From the IMG/VR virus record IMGVR_UViG_3300045988_133728, positions 37,250 to 101,249 of that record: a stretch of 64,000 nt of DNA; one strand, written 5' to 3'. The notes under the pieces are model-generated. The model did no database searches and was not told the origin of the DNA. It saw only the letters and a list, made by a program, of their open reading frames with translations. The DNA is from a virus. Each line of letters opens with the position of its first letter. The first letter of the stretch is position 1. Of this stretch, positions 2,822 to 42,472 are shown in pieces. Position numbers and translations under genes: made by a program.

Positions 2822-5800
2822 CAATAATATAGATAGATATAATCCTGCTGCTAAAACCACTTACGAAGATGTGGCAAGGCAAAGGAAATTAGCCGAAGAA
2901 GAGAATTACACTCCGGCTACATTACCAGAGACGACAACACCTCTGGTTCCTAATTATATGCCTGGTGAAGGTGTGTATGCCCAACCTAAATTTCCGGATT
3001 ACGCATCAAGGATAGCTGCTGCCGAATACGAAGAACCGTATATAGCCAAGGAGATAAGCAACAGCTACTCGGAGGCACTGGCTCGTAACAGCTACAGGGG
3101 GGCTACACCTGCCCCGCCGCCTCTTAATCCCTATGGACCGAAGGTAAGTATCCGTGAAAGTCATCAGATGGGTAATGATGGGGTATGGCGTACAAAATAT
3201 CCCAACTATATTCCGGGTATAAACAATGAGGATTATTATGCCAGAAGACAGAGCGGATGGAGTAAGTTTTGGAATGGTGTAGGCAAATTCGCTTTAAAGT
3301 CCGCATTGTACGGTGCGCAAGGAGTTGTGTCATTGCCTGACAAACTTATCAATATGGCATCTGAGGGAAGTTACAAAGCTGCGTTAAACACTAACATGGA
3401 TAAGTTTGTAGGTGATCTTGACCAGCAAATAGACATGCTTCTTCCCCATTATTACAAGAAAGAGGTAGAAGATTATAATTTTGGTCAGAAGCTTTTTAAG
3501 GATACCGGTAATTTCTTGTGGAATGACGTCCTTGGTAATGGTATGTCTTTTACCGTAGGAGCCATGATATCAGCGTACATGACCGGAGGACTTGGAGTTG
3601 GATCATTGGGTAATATAGGCGCTAAATTAGGTGGAAGAATCGGAGCTAAGTTAGCAGCAAGGCAAGCTGCCAATAGGGGCATAGGAAGCCTTAAAAGCGT
3701 GTTTAACGACTATGTAAGAAAAGGAGTTGCTACCGGAAGAAATGTAGGGGAGGCGGCTAAGACCATGACGTTGTTGGCTACCAGTGCCGGATTCGAGTCA
3801 TCGGTTGAAGCAAATTCTTTTATGAAGCAATCTGAGTCTGATTTCAAGGATTATTATCGTAAGATTTATGGTCGTGATCCCAATGCAGAGGAAATGGCTG
3901 TTTTTCGTAATTCTAATGCTGATGTAGGTAGTGCTATATTTGCCGCCAATATGGGTATCATAGGATTATCTAACTGGCTTCTTTTTGGTAAGTATATAGG
4001 GTTAGGAGGCAAGGCTATACCAGGGTTGGAAAAGAGGCTCAACAAGCATTTATTTGGATTAGGGACGGAAGTTGCTAAGCCGGGAGAGATGGCTATTAAA
4101 ATAACCAATCCCAATATAGGACAGAAGATAGCAGGCAATGTTTTCAATATCATGAAAAGACCGGTATCTGAAGGCTTATGGGAAGAAGGATCTCAAGGTG
4201 CTGTTCAGAATACGGCTGAGGAATATGTTAAGTCAAGATATGATAATGTCGCCATGAACGGAGCCGTTGATGTTCTTGATGCTATTTCTGAAGGATTTAA
4301 AAAGCAATATACGTCTAAAGAAGGATGGACTGAAATAGGAATCGGTGCTATTATCGGTTCTTTGTTTGGTATGAGAGAAGGCTTCTTTGGGGTGAAAGAG
4401 TATAGTAATAGTCAGATCTTGCTGGAAAGGCAAGTGAATGAATATAACAAAGCATCTTCTAATCTTAACACGGCGGCTTTGAATACGTTGAAAAAATCAA
4501 TGAGTTTAGGGCCTCAAGTTCGTTCCGATGCCCAGTCTATGACTGGTAAGGAGCTTGATGATGCTATGTTTGAAAAGATGTCTATTGACAACCAAATGGG
4601 AACCTTAGAGGATTCGGCTGAAAATTTCCGGCAGATGATTGATATGATGCCTATTTCGGAAATAGCCGAAGCTAATGGAATGTCTTTAGAAGAGGCAAAG
4701 AAATACAAGGATTCTATTATTGATAATTATAACAATCGTCTTTCGGATTTCAGATCTGCCCAGAGTTTTGCCGAAGATCTTATAGGTGATGACTCTAAGA
4801 TTGAATTTAGAAAATACGTGGCTCGTAATGCCTTCCTTGGTCTTCAATCAGAATCAAGAATGAAAGACATAGCTTCTGTCATAGAAACGCTTTCAGGACA
4901 GCCTCGCGTGGCAGATGCGCTAAGTACGTTCTCCCGGCTGTCGGACAGAGCAAGGGAGCGGGCGATGGCTATCCGTGGCATACGGTCAAGGATAGAAGAA
5001 CTTGAATCCGAAATAGAAGATCTTGCTACCCGCCCTCGTAACGTAGAAGGGAAAGATCCACAAGCTGAATCCATACAACGAAAAACCAAAGAATTGGAAA
5101 GCCTTAGAACCAATTATAATAATTCGTTGTCTGAGTTATCAACGTTAATAGGAAAAGAGTTTTCGATAGAAGAGCTGGTAAGTAAAACCGAATCTGTTTT
5201 ATCTTCTCCTCTTTCTCCCATAAGTTCACAAGATGTGATAGAAGCCTATGATACGCTTGTGGCTTTTGATGATTATTTTAATGTAAAATCAAGACAGGAA
5301 AAGAAGTTTACAGCCAAAGACAAAGCCATGAGATCCTTGGTAAATGAATACCGAAGGAGTTTGATGGACTATAGGAATATGAATAACTTCTTGTCTAAGA
5401 TGCTTGATAAAAGATTCTTAGCTGAGGAAAATAGGGGATTTTCAAAAGCGCTGTCTTCTCTATGGTCTACTCCTTATAAAGGGGATGACAAGGTTCCTGA
5501 TTTTGCAGAGCCTAATAAAGTTGGTGAATATGACACTGATGAGGTAGTAGATCAAGCTGTGTCAGAAGGTAAGATTTCGGAAGACGAAGCTTGGACTATC
5601 AAGGCTTTTATGCATGCTCTTGATAAAGTAAGGGAAGATAGGATGAAGGAAGCAGAAGATGATATAAAAGAGTCACCGCTTACGGAGTCTGTATCGGATG
5701 AAGATTATGAGGCTGCTATGGATAATCCTATTATGGATAATCCTATTATGGTTCCGGCCGTAAGGCAGTCTATAATTGATAAACTATATACAGGTAATGC

Positions 5801-9488: not shown

Positions 9489-10054
9489 ATGAAGATGTTT
9501 CAGGTCTTGTTCAGTATCAGTTGAAGACCAATCAGCAGGGGAATATAGAGGTTTATGTTGATGACGGGTTTGTTGGAAACGTAAGTGAAGGAGTCTGTAA
9601 TTGGAAGGATGTTGAATACAAGAGTAAGGTTACTATATCTTTGAAAGGAGTCGAGAATAAGGCTAAAACTTCAAGTAAAAGAGTCGGTCCCTATTGTCAC
9701 ATTTATAGCATATTTGGAGGAAATGAATCTTATCATGAAGGTCCGGATAGTAATATAAAAAAGAGTCCGGTTACCACCTTTATAATGTATTGTTATAAAA
9801 ATGGGGATATTACAACTACCACCACTTATACTAAAAATTTATCTGGAACTCTTCATATAGGTAAAACACAATTGACTATCAATTACAAACAAAGTAAAAG
9901 TCAGTCTTTTTCTGGTGGTGATAAAGATTATGTAACATCCGTATCTGATTTCCCTTTTGTTACTGGTCCAGGAGATAATAGCGTTGAGTTTGAAGGAGAG
10001 GGAAGATTAATAGTTGAAACAAAGGCTTCGCATTATGAAATAGAAGTTTCATAA
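9476..10054 (+). CDS. MRRR[FY]-family small protein, paralog A (about 192 aa)
   Basis: The ATG lies 2 nt after the TGA of the giant ORF, consistent with translational coupling. The 5' end ATGAGAAGGAGATAT is shared with three other genes (10188, 28601, 29223). It has a Thr-run (TTTTTYTKN) and is beta-rich. Confidence 0.6.
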   Translation: MRRRYEDVSGLVQYQLKTNQQGNIEVYVDDGFVGNVSEGVCNWKDVEYKSKVTISLKGVENKAKTSSKRVGPYCHIYSIFGGNESYHEGPDSNIKKSPVTTFIMYCYKNGDITTTTTYTKNLSGTLHIGKTQLTINYKQSKSQSFSGGDKDYVTSVSDFPFVTGPGDNSVEFEGEGRLIVETKASHYEIEVS

Positions 10055-10092
10055 TTTCTATTTTTATAGTATTTTGTCTAAAATATTTATCA

Positions 10093-10121
10093 CTATGGGT
10101 GTCAAATGTCAGATAGAAAAA
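10093..10121 (+). repeat. repeat X, copy 1 (orphan copy of the first 27 nt of the 752-aa gene)
   Basis: CTATGGGTGTCAAATGTCAGATAGAAAAA is identical to 10743-10771 apart from one base before the ATG. It reads as the mini-ORF MGVKCQIEK followed by a stop. Confidence 0.8.
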
Positions 10122-10122
10122 T

Positions 10123-10200
10123 AAGAATCTCGTAGAAGGTTCTGATAATTCGGATTCGATAAATAAGTTAAACAAGGAGTGTTGAGTATGAGAAGGAGAT
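10123..10200 (+). repeat. junction repeat J, copy 2 (orphan copy of the giant-ORF 3' end fused to the start of paralog B)
   Basis: It reproduces the last roughly 20 codons of the 2219-aa ORF, including the stop and MRRR start context, although no giant ORF precedes it. Confidence 0.8.
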
Positions 10201-10718
10201 TTTTTAATGCTGCGGATAATTTCGTGGGAGGATGTTATAATAAGTTATCTAATGAGGATATAAAAAGGCTTGGAGGAAAAAGATCTTATGTATGTCAGTT
10301 TAATAAAATTCATATACATATAGGACCTGTATTAAAAGATAATGATTCCGAAGAAAGTTATATAATGTTTAATAGTGATTGGAATCATGGTGGTTATGAA
10401 TCTATAGTTTATCACCATAGTAATAATGGTATTTTTATATTAGGTGAAAATAAAATTGGTAATAGAGAAGATCATATACAGGATCTAACATATTGGTACG
10501 AATATGATCCAAACATTAATGAAAATTATTGTTATTGTTATTATGAAGCTGATAACAGCGGAAATGCTATTAAGTTGAGCCGTGAGTTTGGTGATGTTTG
10601 CACTGTTTTTAATATTCCCAGTTTGAAAGTTACTACTCTTCGTGATGGCGGTTTAAGTTTTCCAGAGATTTATATAGAAGGAGTTTGGGATCCGTTATTG
10701 TATAAGTCGGTTTTATAA
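10188..10718 (+). CDS. MRRR[FY]-family small protein, paralog B (about 176 aa)
   Basis: It starts with MRRRFF. It is preceded by a roughly 78-bp copy (10123-10200, about 94% identical) of the junction sequence at 9411-9488. The body is not similar to paralog A. Confidence 0.6.
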   Translation: MRRRFFNAADNFVGGCYNKLSNEDIKRLGGKRSYVCQFNKIHIHIGPVLKDNDSEESYIMFNSDWNHGGYESIVYHHSNNGIFILGENKIGNREDHIQDLTYWYEYDPNINENYCYCYYEADNSGNAIKLSREFGDVCTVFNIPSLKVTTLRDGGLSFPEIYIEGVWDPLLYKSVL

Positions 10719-37233: not shown

Positions 37234-37399
37234 TGGACTCCCTTTAAGTAGTTAAACCATATATCCTCCAGCTTCTCCTGAAGTTCAAATGCTTTCTTGA
37301 AATTCCCACATCTTACAGCAACGTCTCTCATATATTCTACGTTTATAACTTCCGGATCTTGCCGGTATTTTGTTCTTAACTTTTGAACGTCCTCGTATT

Positions 37400-38763: not shown

Positions 38764-39302
38764 ATCTCATATTCTATTAAATATATTTAAAGCTATTCAT
38801 ATGTTTTAATACATCCCCTCGGAGACCTTCCGGTCTCCTTGGTAGATGTAAATCCCGTTAGGGATAAGTCAGGATTTCTCCTGTAAGTACCCATCGCCAA
38901 TGTTATAAGAGGTTTTATATAATGGCAACACTGTTTCGTCAAATACACTACTCCTGTTTAATCACCATCCTTAGAGCAAGAAACTTGGATAAACATTCCT
39001 TGGTAACTATTTATTCTCAAATAACGTAGCCTCTGTTTCGAGGCTTAGGCTAATAACCCGATCTCTGAAAGAGATGTATTAAACTTTTATAATAGAATTA
39101 TATTGGGTTAATACTATTTGGGGTTATAACACCGATCATAATGCTTGGTCAGTTCTTCTGGTTCTAAATCTTGTCCAAAATCCATGTTAAAAATATCGTA
39201 ATTAGTAAAGCACTTAAAATCACTGTCCCTGCCGGCAGGAAATCTATGAATGCTGCTTTTGCTTCTTCAATTAGGCCCAAGTGTAACCTTGGGCCATTGT
39301 AT

Positions 39303-41003
39303 TTATTTTTTGTCATCTCCTTTTAACTTCTTTAAAGTATCTGCAATCGGAAGCTGATCAATGACTCCCAATGCCGGAGCGACGGTCTTAACAACATTGT
39401 TAAGAAAATTACCGGTACTGTTCTGACCGCCGTCAAATACCGTGATATTTCCGAGGTTAATGTGCTCAAATGCCTTAACCTGTTCTCCGGCAATTTCTTT
39501 CCACTGATTAACCATCTTGTACTGGATGGCGATCTGAGGATTGGATTCTGCTGCTTCCACCATAGCCTTAAATCCGTCGGCTTCTGCCATTAACGACTTT
39601 TTCTTACCTTCGGCTTCTGCCTCCAGTTTCATCTGAATAGCCTTTGCCTCTGCCTCAGCTTTTGCCAAATGTGCTGCCGCCTCAGCCTCAGCCCGGCGTT
39701 TGATCTTCTCTGCCTCAGCATCAGCTTGTAATATAGCCTCTTCCTTCTGGGTTTCAGCCGGCACAATCTTTTCAGCCTTAAGCGCAGCCTGAACTTTCTT
39801 AGCCTTAGCTTCTTCCACTTCTTTGTCGGCAAGCTCTTTTGCTGTTTTTACAGCCGCTTCCGATTTAACTTTTTCTTCTCCGGCCTTCTTCTCTGATTGA
39901 GCTTTGATAATCTGTAGTTCTGATACTGACACAGCAACCTCCTTCTGGGCATTGTTGTATCCTATAGACGCATTTTTCTCAGCCTCAGCCTTCTTAATCT
40001 GAGCTTCAGAGTCTTGTATTGCTATAGCTGCTTCCTTGTCAGCTTCAGCCTTATTCTTTCCGACTTCTTCCATCCTTTCAGCCTCGGCTTTATTTACTTC
40101 AAGTTCTGCCTTAGATCTTACAATCGCCGATTCCTTGTCGGTTAAAGTTTTTGCGATAACCGCAGCCCTGTCTCTATCTGCTTGAGCTACGCCGATCTGT
40201 TTTTCTTTATCGGTTAAAGCCAAGGCTATTTCTTTTTCTTTCTTCGTTTCAGCTACTATCGTTTCCTTTTCTTTTTCAGTACAAGCAATTTGAATCTCTT
40301 GTTCTTTTTTGGTATTAGCTACAGCCGTTTCTTTCTCCTTCTGCTGTACAGCAATCTTAATAGCACCCAGTTTCTCCTGTTCTTCGATATTAGCCTGTGC
40401 TTCGTTCAGAGCCCTACTTTCAGCCTCCTTACCAAGGTTCATAATATAACCGGCTTCGTCTCTGATGTCACTGATGTTGATGTTCAGGAGGTAAAGACCT
40501 AACTTATTAAGCTCGTTATCAATGTTCTTTCTTGCCTTATCCAAAAACTCATCCCTGTCAGAATTAAGTTTTTCGATTGTCATTTCAGCAATAATCAAAC
40601 GCATCTGACCGTAAACGATGTCCGTAATAAGATTTTCAGTAGATTCGGTATCCATCCCCAAAAGTCTTTCTGCCGCATTTTGCATGATTTCGGGATTTGT
40701 ACTGATAGCTACTGTAATGGTCGTAGGTACATCTACTCTAATATTCTGAGATGACAAAGCACCGGTAAGCTTGCAATCTATTTGCATAGGCTCCATTGAC
40801 AAAACATCATAGCTTTGAATAATAGGCAAGACAAATGCCGCTCCACCATGATATAATTTTGCCGACTTCTTTTCCCCACCTGTCTTACCGTAAACGACCA
40901 AGACCTGATTAGGCTTACATCTACGATACCTTGATAAGACTCCGATGATTGTCAAAATAATCACTACAGCTAAGATAGCTGACACGTACATGATTGTTGT
41001 CAT
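39303..41003 (-). CDS. flotillin-like SPFH/band-7 protein (YqiK/FloT-like)
   Basis: There is an N-terminal transmembrane segment followed by an SPFH core (PNQVLVVYGKTGG...AAFVLPIIQSYDVLSMEPMQID...). A long Glu/Ala/Lys-rich flotillin-type coiled-coil repeat region (KEKETAVANTKKEQEIQIA...) follows. Confidence 0.7.
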   Translation of the reverse strand: MTTIMYVSAILAVVIILTIIGVLSRYRRCKPNQVLVVYGKTGGEKKSAKLYHGGAAFVLPIIQSYDVLSMEPMQIDCKLTGALSSQNIRVDVPTTITVAISTNPEIMQNAAERLLGMDTESTENLITDIVYGQMRLIIAEMTIEKLNSDRDEFLDKARKNIDNELNKLGLYLLNINISDIRDEAGYIMNLGKEAESRALNEAQANIEEQEKLGAIKIAVQQKEKETAVANTKKEQEIQIACTEKEKETIVAETKKEKEIALALTDKEKQIGVAQADRDRAAVIAKTLTDKESAIVRSKAELEVNKAEAERMEEVGKNKAEADKEAAIAIQDSEAQIKKAEAEKNASIGYNNAQKEVAVSVSELQIIKAQSEKKAGEEKVKSEAAVKTAKELADKEVEEAKAKKVQAALKAEKIVPAETQKEEAILQADAEAEKIKRRAEAEAAAHLAKAEAEAKAIQMKLEAEAEGKKKSLMAEADGFKAMVEAAESNPQIAIQYKMVNQWKEIAGEQVKAFEHINLGNITVFDGGQNSTGNFLNNVVKTVAPALGVIDQLPIADTLKKLKGDDKK

Positions 41004-41035
41004 AACTTTTAAAATTTAATTGTTGATAAAAAAAA

Positions 41036-41530
41036 TTAGATACTTAATTCTCCTTCTTCATATTTTATATTCGCCTTGTCGCCGTTTTTGTAGGTTTTTC
41101 CAGACAAGCATCTTACTCTCATTTGCTCTTGTCTTCCATTTTTCGAAATATTTACCATATAATGATTCTTCCCTGATCTAAATACTATCTCCACTTCTCT
41201 TCCGTTTAAATCTTCCGGACATTCGTACACCATTTCTTGCTTTAACTTAAGAAGTAACTTATATACGTAAAACAAAACGATAAAGAAAAACGACCCTATC
41301 ACAACCCCTACTAAATGGGAACCCGAAAAGTAGGTAGTCCAGCTATATCCAAGAATAAAATGTGTTATGCCCTTGAATGATATGATGTCCGACAAAGACA
41401 TGCTTAAATCAGAAGCACTGTCAATGTCAATATCCGTATCCAGATCAGATCCTAATATCGACAACAAAAACTGTATAACAAAAGCAAATGACGCTATTAA
41501 AGCCATGCATAAAATTATATCACTTCCCAT
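41036..41530 (-). CDS. NfeD-like membrane protein (YqiJ-like partner of SPFH proteins)
   Basis: It has N-terminal transmembrane helices and a C-terminal beta/OB-like soluble domain (GREVEIVF...MRVRCLSGKTYKNGDKANI). It is positioned immediately upstream of the flotillin gene, as in bacterial nfeD-flotillin operons. Confidence 0.55.
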   Translation of the reverse strand: MGSDIILCMALIASFAFVIQFLLSILGSDLDTDIDIDSASDLSMSLSDIISFKGITHFILGYSWTTYFSGSHLVGVVIGSFFFIVLFYVYKLLLKLKQEMVYECPEDLNGREVEIVFRSGKNHYMVNISKNGRQEQMRVRCLSGKTYKNGDKANIKYEEGELSI

Positions 41531-41771
41531 ACCCTTCTGTTATTATTTTGTAAACAAGATCAGTCATATCTTTGATGGTCTCCATATCATAATCAATAAT
41601 AACAATATTGAATTTTTGTTCCACCATCACATCAAGCTCAATTCGATCAACAGAATCTAATCCAAGTTCTTTAAACGTCACATCTTCTTTATGAACTATA
41701 TCTATTTCCGAATTAAGAAACTGAGTAATAATTATATCCTCTATTATCTTTCTGATTCTTACTTTTTCCAT
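41520..41771 (-). CDS. acyl carrier protein-like (phosphopantetheine-binding) small protein
   Basis: It has the canonical ACP helix-II motif FKELGLDSVDRIELDVMVEQKFNIVI, with the DSL/DSV serine; it is 83 aa and acidic. Confidence 0.6.
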   Translation of the reverse strand: MEKVRIRKIIEDIIITQFLNSEIDIVHKEDVTFKELGLDSVDRIELDVMVEQKFNIVIIDYDMETIKDMTDLVYKIITEGYGK

Positions 41772-42472
41772 TGCTTTCTAATTTTGTTAAATAAATACGT
41801 TTTTATGTTTTTCAACCTCTCTTTGTCTGTTTCCGAACTTCCGGTAAACAAATAATCCGGATTGCCTTTAGCCGGCGGCGTAGGCAATTTAGATACGGCA
41901 AACAACCAATCCATTTCCTTATTCTTCTTAGACTCCAAATAAGGCTCGGTAGCGATCTTAAATTTTTCAGCTATTAAGTCAAAGAGCTTTGAATTTTTAA
42001 GGTTCATATGGACTGAAAAAGCCTGAGAAGGCGGTTTCCATATGAAGTTGCATAAGCTCATCGTATAATCTCCTGACTCTGCTATATAAGATTCCGTTAC
42101 CTGAAGTATGACCTCTTTCTTGAATGAGGTGTTACCCATAAACCAACACAATCTGGATTCCGCTTCTTTTCTGCTGACACCTATGTCTTTTGAATATGAT
42201 TCGTACATCCCTATCATAATCTTCAACGTTTCCAGAACCTCGTCTGTCATTTCCGGAGTCTCTATATAATTCACAAAAGACGTTCCTTTGTTGGTCAATC
42301 TCATCACGCCTGATTTTAATTTCTCAACCAGGCCAAGCTCTATATACCTCCCAGCATCTTCTTCCGGCATGGCTTCGATCATAACCGTATCCTTCTGTCT
42401 TATGGCAAGAAGATTAGCAAGATCATTAGGAGTCATGTCTGATGCTGCAAGTTGTCTGAAATTGATGTACAT
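41759..42472 (-). CDS. hypothetical protein
   Basis: ORF of 237 aa. Confidence 0.55.
   Translation of the reverse strand: MYINFRQLAASDMTPNDLANLLAIRQKDTVMIEAMPEEDAGRYIELGLVEKLKSGVMRLTNKGTSFVNYIETPEMTDEVLETLKIMIGMYESYSKDIGVSRKEAESRLCWFMGNTSFKKEVILQVTESYIAESGDYTMSLCNFIWKPPSQAFSVHMNLKNSKLFDLIAEKFKIATEPYLESKKNKEMDWLFAVSKLPTPPAKGNPDYLFTGSSETDKERLKNIKTYLFNKIRKQWKK

Follow-up and report, generated by a model that had tools for sequence, protein, structure and literature searches.

An NfeD-like/flotillin gene pair of probable Bacteroidaceae origin in epsilon crAss-like phages

Flotillin operons in bacteria and phages

Flotillins of the SPFH2 class are known from bacterial operons in which they are paired with a membrane protein of the NfeD2 class, as in yuaF-floT(yuaG)-yuaI of Bacillus subtilis and yqiJ-yqiK of Escherichia coli (Hinderhofer et al. 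2009, PMC2636767). The short NfeD partners, YuaF and YqiJ, are typically 140-150 amino acids (aa) long, combine three hydrophobic stretches with an all-beta domain, and are encoded upstream of the flotillin (PMC2636767). Here we describe such a pair in a virus. In a stretch of 64,000 nucleotides (nt) from the IMG/VR record IMGVR_UViG_3300045988_133728 (positions 37,250 to 101,249; the whole stretch is called the window below), a 566-aa flotillin and a 164-aa NfeD-like protein are encoded within the leftward replication-gene block of a phage, next to a gene for an acyl carrier protein (ACP). We consider it probable that the pair is a host-derived operon, captured from Bacteroidaceae, which serves as an accessory membrane scaffold whose value depends on the host strain. 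An earlier reading of the letters alone, referred to here as the original prediction, had recognised an ACP-like, an NfeD/YqiJ-like and a flotillin gene at this place and had proposed a joint, lipid-linked function for the three.

Like yuaF-floT and yqiJ-yqiK, the phage locus places a short NfeD-like gene, for three helices and an OB domain, upstream of the gene for an anchored flotillin of ~500-570 aa with an EA-rich coiled coil and a Flot domain, so that the predicted likeness in gene order to bacterial nfeD-flotillin operons holds. Unlike them, its flotillin is only 24% identical to YqiK and falls short of the FloT cut-off, and its partner is missed by the NfeD, YqiJ_N and YqiJ_OB models. 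The E. coli QmcA-YbbJ complex (PDB 8z5g; Tan et al. 2024, as cited in PMC12624060) is a probable structural template for the assembly of the pair, although QmcA is a stomatin-type SPFH1 protein and not a flotillin. An uncharacterised chromosomal operon of Bacteroides and other Bacteroidota shares with the phage the same two genes in the same order and the same partner family, marked by SFKG..HF and DxDxD motifs; the phage copy differs in lying among replication genes, with an ACP gene upstream and a 50-aa open reading frame (ORF) downstream, and in its flotillin length of 566 aa against ~547-552 aa in most Bacteroides copies.

Phage SPFH proteins have been listed in genome papers, none of them functionally characterised. 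They include those of the T4-like phages 44RR, Aeh1 and RB43 (PMC1524935), an SPFH domain reported by a 2026 preprint in a Crassvirales genus of Segatella copri, and a flotillin of Vibrio phage KIT04, which is 29% identical to that of the window and in whose two neighbouring ORFs Pfam finds nothing. The view that such a protein is unusual cargo for a phage is borne out by GenBank, where only 11 of 50,697 phage records match the flotillin, most of them short or unverified fragments. Two unverified human-faeces scaffolds named 'Bacteriophage sp.', L180 (MT835492, positions 2929-4482) and L181 (MT835570, positions 2917-4473), encode flotillins of 517-518 aa with Band_7 and Flot domains; Pfam recognises no NfeD-like neighbour in either, and L181 looks GC-rich and may be bacterial. 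Our literature search found no paper linking crAss-like phages with flotillin.

The phage pair and its bacterial relatives

The region is 97% nucleotide-identical to phage crAssE-Sib (OR575929, named csAssE-Sib in GenBank), a 151-kb genome from a human gut sample that was placed in the proposed genus Epsilonunovirus of the epsilon crAss-like phages, with CRISPR spacer matches pointing to Bacteroidia hosts (PMC11054128). The GenBank record already annotates a 'flotillin family protein', a 'transmembrane protein' and an 'acyl carrier protein', as well as the 50-aa ORF, while the text of the crAssE-Sib paper makes no mention of flotillin, SPFH or ACP (PMC11054128). The locus adds an annotated but so far unstudied case to a kind of system already known, and does not represent a new kind. 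The exact proteins of the window occur on at least 1000 public contigs of up to ~250 kb, the flotillin is found on 164 IMG/VR contigs, and GC content is uniform across the block and matches its surroundings. A chimeric assembly containing host DNA, which the original prediction had named as a result that would overturn it, is excluded by the complete virome genome, the contig counts and the uniform GC content taken together. The recurrence of the three genes in other phages, which it had proposed as a check, was also found, since they stand together both in crAssE-Sib and in a second phage lineage (L089).

The 566-aa protein is recognised as a flotillin by Pfam Band_7 (PF01145; E 7.6e-26, 91.7 bits, cut-off 23.6) and Flot (PF15975; E 2.1e-9, 38 bits, cut-off 27), both above the gathering cut-offs, and E. 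coli YqiK aligns with it end to end (24% identity, E 1e-20), as had been foreseen. Residues 5-24 are hydrophobic and form a predicted N-terminal membrane anchor. By sequence comparison, the phage protein belongs to the flotillin family but is not strictly orthologous to FloT.

The coiled coil of the flotillin is rich in E, A and K and is built of hendecads. Self-identity reaches 0.29 at an offset of 11 residues and 0.25 at offsets of 22 and 33, hydrophobic periodicity peaks at 11.08 residues, and Tandem Repeats Finder detects no DNA-level repeat beneath the hendecads, the repeat being seen at the protein level only. Public alleles of the flotillin differ by in-frame coiled-coil insertions or deletions of 11, 22, 33, 88, 99 and 154 aa: 19 clusters are without exactly 11 residues, four without 22 and two without 33, others are without 88, 99 or 154, and two distant relatives are longer, by insertions of 49 and 90 residues. 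Most of these length variants stay in the reading frame to the C-terminus. Truncated clusters of 425 and 507 aa were considered as pseudogenes and rejected, because fragmentary contigs could yield such lengths. In solved SPFH complexes, which form domed oligomeric rings, subunit number tracks coiled-coil length (PMC12624060), and by analogy alleles with different numbers of hendecads may therefore build cages of different size.

The 164-aa protein is, by predicted fold and operon context, a short NfeD-type membrane protein. Its AlphaFold2 (AF2) model has a mean predicted local distance difference test score (pLDDT) of 73.5, rising to 82-89 in the C-terminal part, and contains three long helices (residues 2-25, 52-69 and 72-101) followed by a small beta domain. 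Among solved structures, NfeD domains come closest to this modelled fold of three helices and an OB domain. In a Foldseek search of the PDB, the match of rank 2 is YbbJ of the QmcA-YbbJ complex (8z5g), aligned over 119 columns that span the helices and the OB domain, although the match is weak (E 0.036, template modelling score 0.33-0.35). Its length is slightly above that typical of flotillin partners and, together with its three helices, falls within the range by which short NfeD proteins are delimited (~140-210 aa). A 34%-identical protein in a viral structure library carries the name 'NfeD-like C-terminal domain-containing protein', and an NCBI record of a metagenome-assembled genome labels the exact 164-aa protein DUF1449, the name that the E. 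coli K-12 annotation uses for YqiJ. The original assignment to NfeD/YqiJ is thus upheld by fold and operon context, which lead us to call the protein NfeD-like, and is left without support by profile searches, which recover neither NfeD nor YqiJ.

An exhaustive profile search (E<=1e-3) assembled a partner family of 420 representatives, of which 82 sequences were used for the motif and Pfam counts. The family is marked by an acidic DxDxDxD loop followed by an SFKG..HF motif (residues 28-58 in the window protein), with S51, K53, G54, H57 and F58 kept in at least 90% of the 82 sequences; judged from the sequence, a metal- or lipid-binding site is conceivable in this region. Only 2 of the 82 reach Pfam NfeD (best E 6e-5), and the family profile matches YuaF at E 0.12.

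The genomic company kept by this family in bacteria is regular. A scan of one genome per species yielded 80 flotillin loci, almost all from Bacteroidota. At 78 of these, the gene immediately upstream, in the same orientation, encodes a family member; of the other two loci, one is cut short by a contig end. Judged by this gene order, the NfeD-like family is the regular operon partner of the Bacteroidota flotillin. Chromosomal Bacteroidota contigs on which a family member directly precedes a Band_7 protein of ~523 aa also bear ribosomal-protein and type IX secretion genes. Over its full length, the phage flotillin is 62-66% identical to those of Bacteroides species and Leyella stercorea, 44-45% identical to the next-ranked Bacteroidales/Bacteroidia loci and ~37-40% identical to the remaining Bacteroidota, while the partner proteins of Bacteroides and of the phage share 37% identity. 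The locus of Bacteroides sp. KFT8 lies on a 6-Mb chromosome, among BACON-domain, AAA ATPase and DUF6078 neighbours and without phage-type domains. In a neighbour-joining tree, the two phage flotillins group together inside the Bacteroidaceae clade, and the simplest reading of these sequences is that the two-gene operon was captured once from a Bacteroidaceae host by an ancestor of the epsilon crAss-like phages.

Conservation, loss and neighbouring genes

The second lineage, on a 74-kb contig, carries the ACP, NfeD-like and flotillin genes and the small downstream ORF in the same order and within the same replication block. Between the two lineages, the flotillin is 82% identical in amino acid sequence, alongside 79% for the DnaB-like helicase, 79% for a second helicase and 78% for the exonuclease; the NfeD-like protein stands at 62%, the ACP at 38% and the small ORF at 34%. 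Nonsynonymous divergence (pN) of the flotillin is 0.11 and synonymous divergence (pS) 0.75, synonymous sites being saturated at 0.75 or more; the flotillin is thus under strong purifying selection, like that on core replication proteins.

Within the lineage of the window, by contrast with this conservation, the flotillin is often lost. A survey anchored on the 237-aa gene upstream of the ACP gene covered 78 informative IMG/VR loci, of which 59 are intact; the flotillin is cleanly deleted in 16 and 3 have deletions of other kinds, so that 19 relatives in all are without an intact copy. The common deletion runs from ~41031, past the NfeD-like stop codon, to ~39194 and takes the flotillin gene with most of the 50-aa gene; its junction sits at a TTTTTAA microhomology, and since the last eight codons of the 50-aa gene remain, the allele is a deletion and not the ancestral state. 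Genomes with this deletion are scattered over at least 10 sequence clusters of the upstream region, and the 50-aa gene is gone wherever the flotillin gene is cleanly absent. Metagenome proteins add ~25-30 more distinct junctions, counted at the flotillin locus, in which the N-terminus of the NfeD-like protein is fused, in or out of frame, to the C-terminus of the flotillin; one junction was verified at the DNA level on a 32-kb contig (L099) whose name records 54x coverage. In another variant, P0044, the ACP is joined directly to the OB domain, and positions 39195-41447 of the window make up a deletion hot spot. From its frequent loss, we infer that the flotillin is dispensable and accessory. 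For the same reason an essential step in replication or assembly is unlikely, and the replication or assembly compartment suggested by the original prediction is hard to reconcile with the natural deletions.

The ACP, for its part, was correctly recognised. The protein, acidic with an isoelectric point of 4.49, matches Pfam PP-binding (26.1 bits, cut-off 20.8) and PHROG 5934, 'acyl carrier protein' (9.7e-9), and a PDB sequence search returned 94 ACP chains at E<=0.1 in which the LGLDS serine falls on the attachment serine; in 3gzl, for example, the serine of LGLDSVD aligns with that of LGADSLD. NCBIfam ACP models match at E ~1e-6 to 1e-7, all below their cut-offs, and the score against the AcpP equivalog TIGR00517 is 28.7 bits, short of its cut-off of 70.45. 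The attachment serine is retained in both phage lineages, and phosphopantetheinylation of the phage protein is putative. Other phage ACPs (PHROG 5934; g153 of the Yersinia jumbo phage fHe-Yen9-04) are likewise small and acidic, with a conserved serine, and encoded among auxiliary genes; that of the window is very distant from them (best tblastn E 5e-3) and has no lipid or polyketide enzymes alongside. Because none of the 80 Bacteroidota loci has an ACP gene within 3.5 kb of the flotillin gene, the ACP does not belong to the bacterial flotillin operon. All 19 IMG/VR genomes without an intact flotillin still encode it whole or nearly so (86% of its length in one locus), as does the verified deletion contig L099, and it is probably a separate, always-retained neighbour that works independently of the pair.

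The features are collected in Table 1. Four tightly packed leftward ORFs occupy 39164-41771; the three of the original prediction lie exactly at 39303-41771 on the minus strand and encode products of 83, 164 and 566 aa, and the 50-aa ORF is a fourth small gene that it had not listed, with a 52-aa counterpart, 34% identical, at the same place in the second lineage. The ACP ORF shares 13 nt at its start with the end of the 237-aa ORF and 11 nt at its end with the start of the NfeD-like ORF. A gap of 32 nt separates the NfeD-like ORF from the flotillin ORF, whose stop codon lies within a 14-nt overlap with the 50-aa ORF; such overlaps between ORFs are usual across this gene block.

Table 1. Coordinates, in window positions, of the pair, its domains and its neighbours
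Feature	Position	Strand	Basis or content
ACP homologue, 83 aa	41520..41771	-	PP-binding, PHROG 5934, PDB ACP matches
NfeD-like (NfeD2/YuaF/YqiJ-type) short membrane protein, 164 aa	41036..41530	-	AF2 model, family, operon context
C-terminal all-beta OB domain of NfeD-like protein, residues 110-164	41039..41203	-	
Flotillin (SPFH2, FloT/YqiK-like), 566 aa	39303..41003	-	Band_7 and Flot domains
SPFH/Band_7 domain of flotillin, residues 30-211	40371..40916	-	Pfam PF01145
Flotillin coiled coil, ~25 hendecad repeats, residues ~201-486	39546..40403	-	Offset self-identity, hydrophobic periodicity
C-terminal Flotillin domain, residues 450-559	39327..39656	-	Pfam PF15975
50-aa ORF, hydrophobic stretch at C-terminus	39164..39316	-	Annotated in crAssE-Sib too
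Interval lost in common deletion allele	39195..41030	.	Flotillin gene and most of 50-aa gene
237-aa ORF upstream of ACP	41759-42472		

Around the pair, the 237-aa ORF is a conserved one, 76% identical between the two lineages and present on at least 1000 contigs. Its product has no family match, and its sole PDB sequence match, to the hypothetical protein SSO2273, is weak (E 0.15); a single-sequence model, meant to test it as a phosphopantetheinyl transferase or acyl-enzyme, came out at pLDDT 34.8 and was unusable. On the other side, between the 50-aa and a 115-aa gene (38764-39126), lie ~360 nt that the window shares with a minority of its relatives and that most, crAssE-Sib included, lack; they hold a 51-aa ORF with a GTG start and, on the minus strand, a terminator-like hairpin (39045-39028). 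A scan for sigma-70 promoters and terminators gave results close to the level of shuffled sequence; the sigma-70 consensus is ill-suited to Bacteroidota promoters.

Proposed role and competing explanations

In the mechanism that we propose, the flotillin would anchor at the cytoplasmic face of the host inner membrane by its N-terminal hydrophobic segment. Its hendecad coiled coil, together with the flotillin domain at the C-terminus, would drive oligomerisation into a ring or cage enclosing a patch of membrane. Its NfeD-like partner would insert by three helices and dock by its OB domain, as YbbJ does in QmcA-YbbJ. Throughout a lengthy infection, whether productive or persistent, the pair would maintain or reshape the membrane of the host, with effects on integrity, fluidity or the scaffolding of membrane proteins. 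By analogy with established knowledge of SPFH proteins, such membrane maintenance is the most likely role; in B. subtilis, yuaF-floT is part of the envelope-stress regulon of sigma-W (PMC2636767), and SPFH proteins are tied to membrane repair in part of the published work.

A number of observations weigh against a captured NfeD-like/flotillin operon acting as an accessory membrane scaffold. The role is predicted and the host uncultured. The flotillin scores 144.5 bits against the NCBIfam FloT equivalog NF058507, far from the cut-off of 700. The 164-aa protein has no Pfam match even at E<=10, with NfeD (PF01957), YqiJ_N (PF21001) and YqiJ_OB (PF07290) included, and nothing useful in NCBIfam or PHROG, and comparison of its family profile with E. 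coli YqiJ by hhalign is not significant (E 0.045, probability 1.2%). Failure to recover SPFH, NfeD or PP-binding domains had been named in advance as grounds for rejecting the three assignments; SPFH and PP-binding were recovered and NfeD was not, so that formally a part of those grounds did appear. The neighbour-joining tree carries no support values, and the deletion frequency of 24%, drawn from an IMG/VR sample dominated by one dataset, should not be taken for a population frequency. In the common deletion allele, the NfeD-like gene persists although the phage flotillin is gone. On a 68-kb metagenome scaffold (L094, positions 10001-10525), a family member, P0183, stands directly after a Phage_lysozyme gene with no SPFH gene near, and some members may act without flotillin, possibly in lysis. 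Given both of these cases, the partner may have a role of its own or use a flotillin of the host.

Other explanations of the locus can be set against this one. That the flotillin is a conflict gene, whose cage guards the membrane against abortive-infection effectors or blocks the entry of rival phage DNA, with its presence or absence and its repeat number reflecting an arms race with host strains, is unlikely but the most probable among them. Genes for counter-defence or exclusion, being accessory, typically show the pattern seen here of strong purifying selection between lineages, frequent loss within a lineage and alleles of varying coiled-coil length. Membrane-remodelling proteins of bacteria are reported to influence how a phage infection ends (PMC8844932). 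PADLOC, however, gives no match for six proteins of the block, our literature search found no experiment in which a flotillin had acted in defence or counter-defence, frequent deletion may be simple dispensability, and length variation may come from recombination among similar repeats. We rate as somewhat less likely again the proposal that SPFH cages of the pair shield or repair the inner membrane against membrane-disrupting abortive-infection effectors or rival phages, with a size tuned by gaining and losing 11-residue repeats, and that the gene is shed in host strains where it is sensed or costly. This proposal would jointly explain the conservation between lineages, the loss in about a quarter of the sampled genomes and the in-frame length variation. 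Quite improbable, in our judgement, is a complex like HflK/C that would capture or modulate a host membrane protease such as FtsH and so control a switch between persistence and lysis through the stability of regulators, phage or host. HflK/C and QmcA/YbbK do interact with FtsH (PMC2636767), genes for a repressor and anti-repressors are present in crAssE-Sib and related phages (PMC11054128), and the 2026 preprint speculates likewise for the SPFH domain of another Crassvirales genus; but the phage protein is of the flotillin (SPFH2) type and not HflK/C (SPFH3), the review that reports FtsH interaction lists it for SPFH1, SPFH3 and SPFH4 and not for SPFH2 (PMC2636767), and no protease gene adjoins the flotillin in the window or in crAssE-Sib.

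The original proposal of one functional unit, in which the ACP, carrying an acyl group or delivering a lipid, would serve to build or remodel a flotillin membrane domain for replication or assembly, appears more improbable still and is the least supported of these, behind the conflict and protease explanations. It can draw on the 11-nt overlap of the ACP and NfeD-like ORFs, which overlap in the second lineage too, on the joint retention of these two genes in nearly every relative examined, and on the attachment serine kept in both lineages. Overlap is common throughout the block, however, and the ACP is absent from the bacterial operons, persists after flotillin deletion and diverges fast between lineages (38% identity against 82% for the flotillin); nor is any phosphopantetheinyl transferase, acyltransferase or fatty-acid or lipid enzyme annotated in the whole 151-kb genome of crAssE-Sib. 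The data thus do not support a lipid-linked triad. At the far end stands the suspicion, to which we give hardly any credence, that the gene is host DNA brought in by mis-assembly or a functionless, decaying passenger acquired recently: it is host-like (62-66% identity to Bacteroides) and often deleted. Yet it occupies the same position in the complete crAssE-Sib genome, on the 164 IMG/VR contigs and on at least 1000 public contigs, it is kept in a second lineage with saturated synonymous sites and low pN, its GC content matches the surroundings, and most length variants remain in frame to the C-terminus; the crAssE-Sib match, the contig counts and the pN of 0.11 effectively refute this explanation.

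For a captured operon with an accessory membrane role, what is new at this locus is its Bacteroidaceae origin, the Bacteroidota partner family with its 420 representatives, the finding that the ACP is uncoupled from the pair, the deletion polymorphism and the variation in hendecad number. The partner family had no name before, and very few of its members are caught by the Pfam models for NfeD and YqiJ. The epsilon crAss-like phages count among the large phages common in the human gut, and it is a question of wider interest how crAss-like phages can remain so abundant without eliminating the bacteria that they infect; a host-derived flotillin operon offers a testable handle on the way a phage manages the membrane of its host. 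The natural series of alleles, from intact through clean and partial deletions to length variants, is a genetic resource that can be correlated with host strains in metagenomes.

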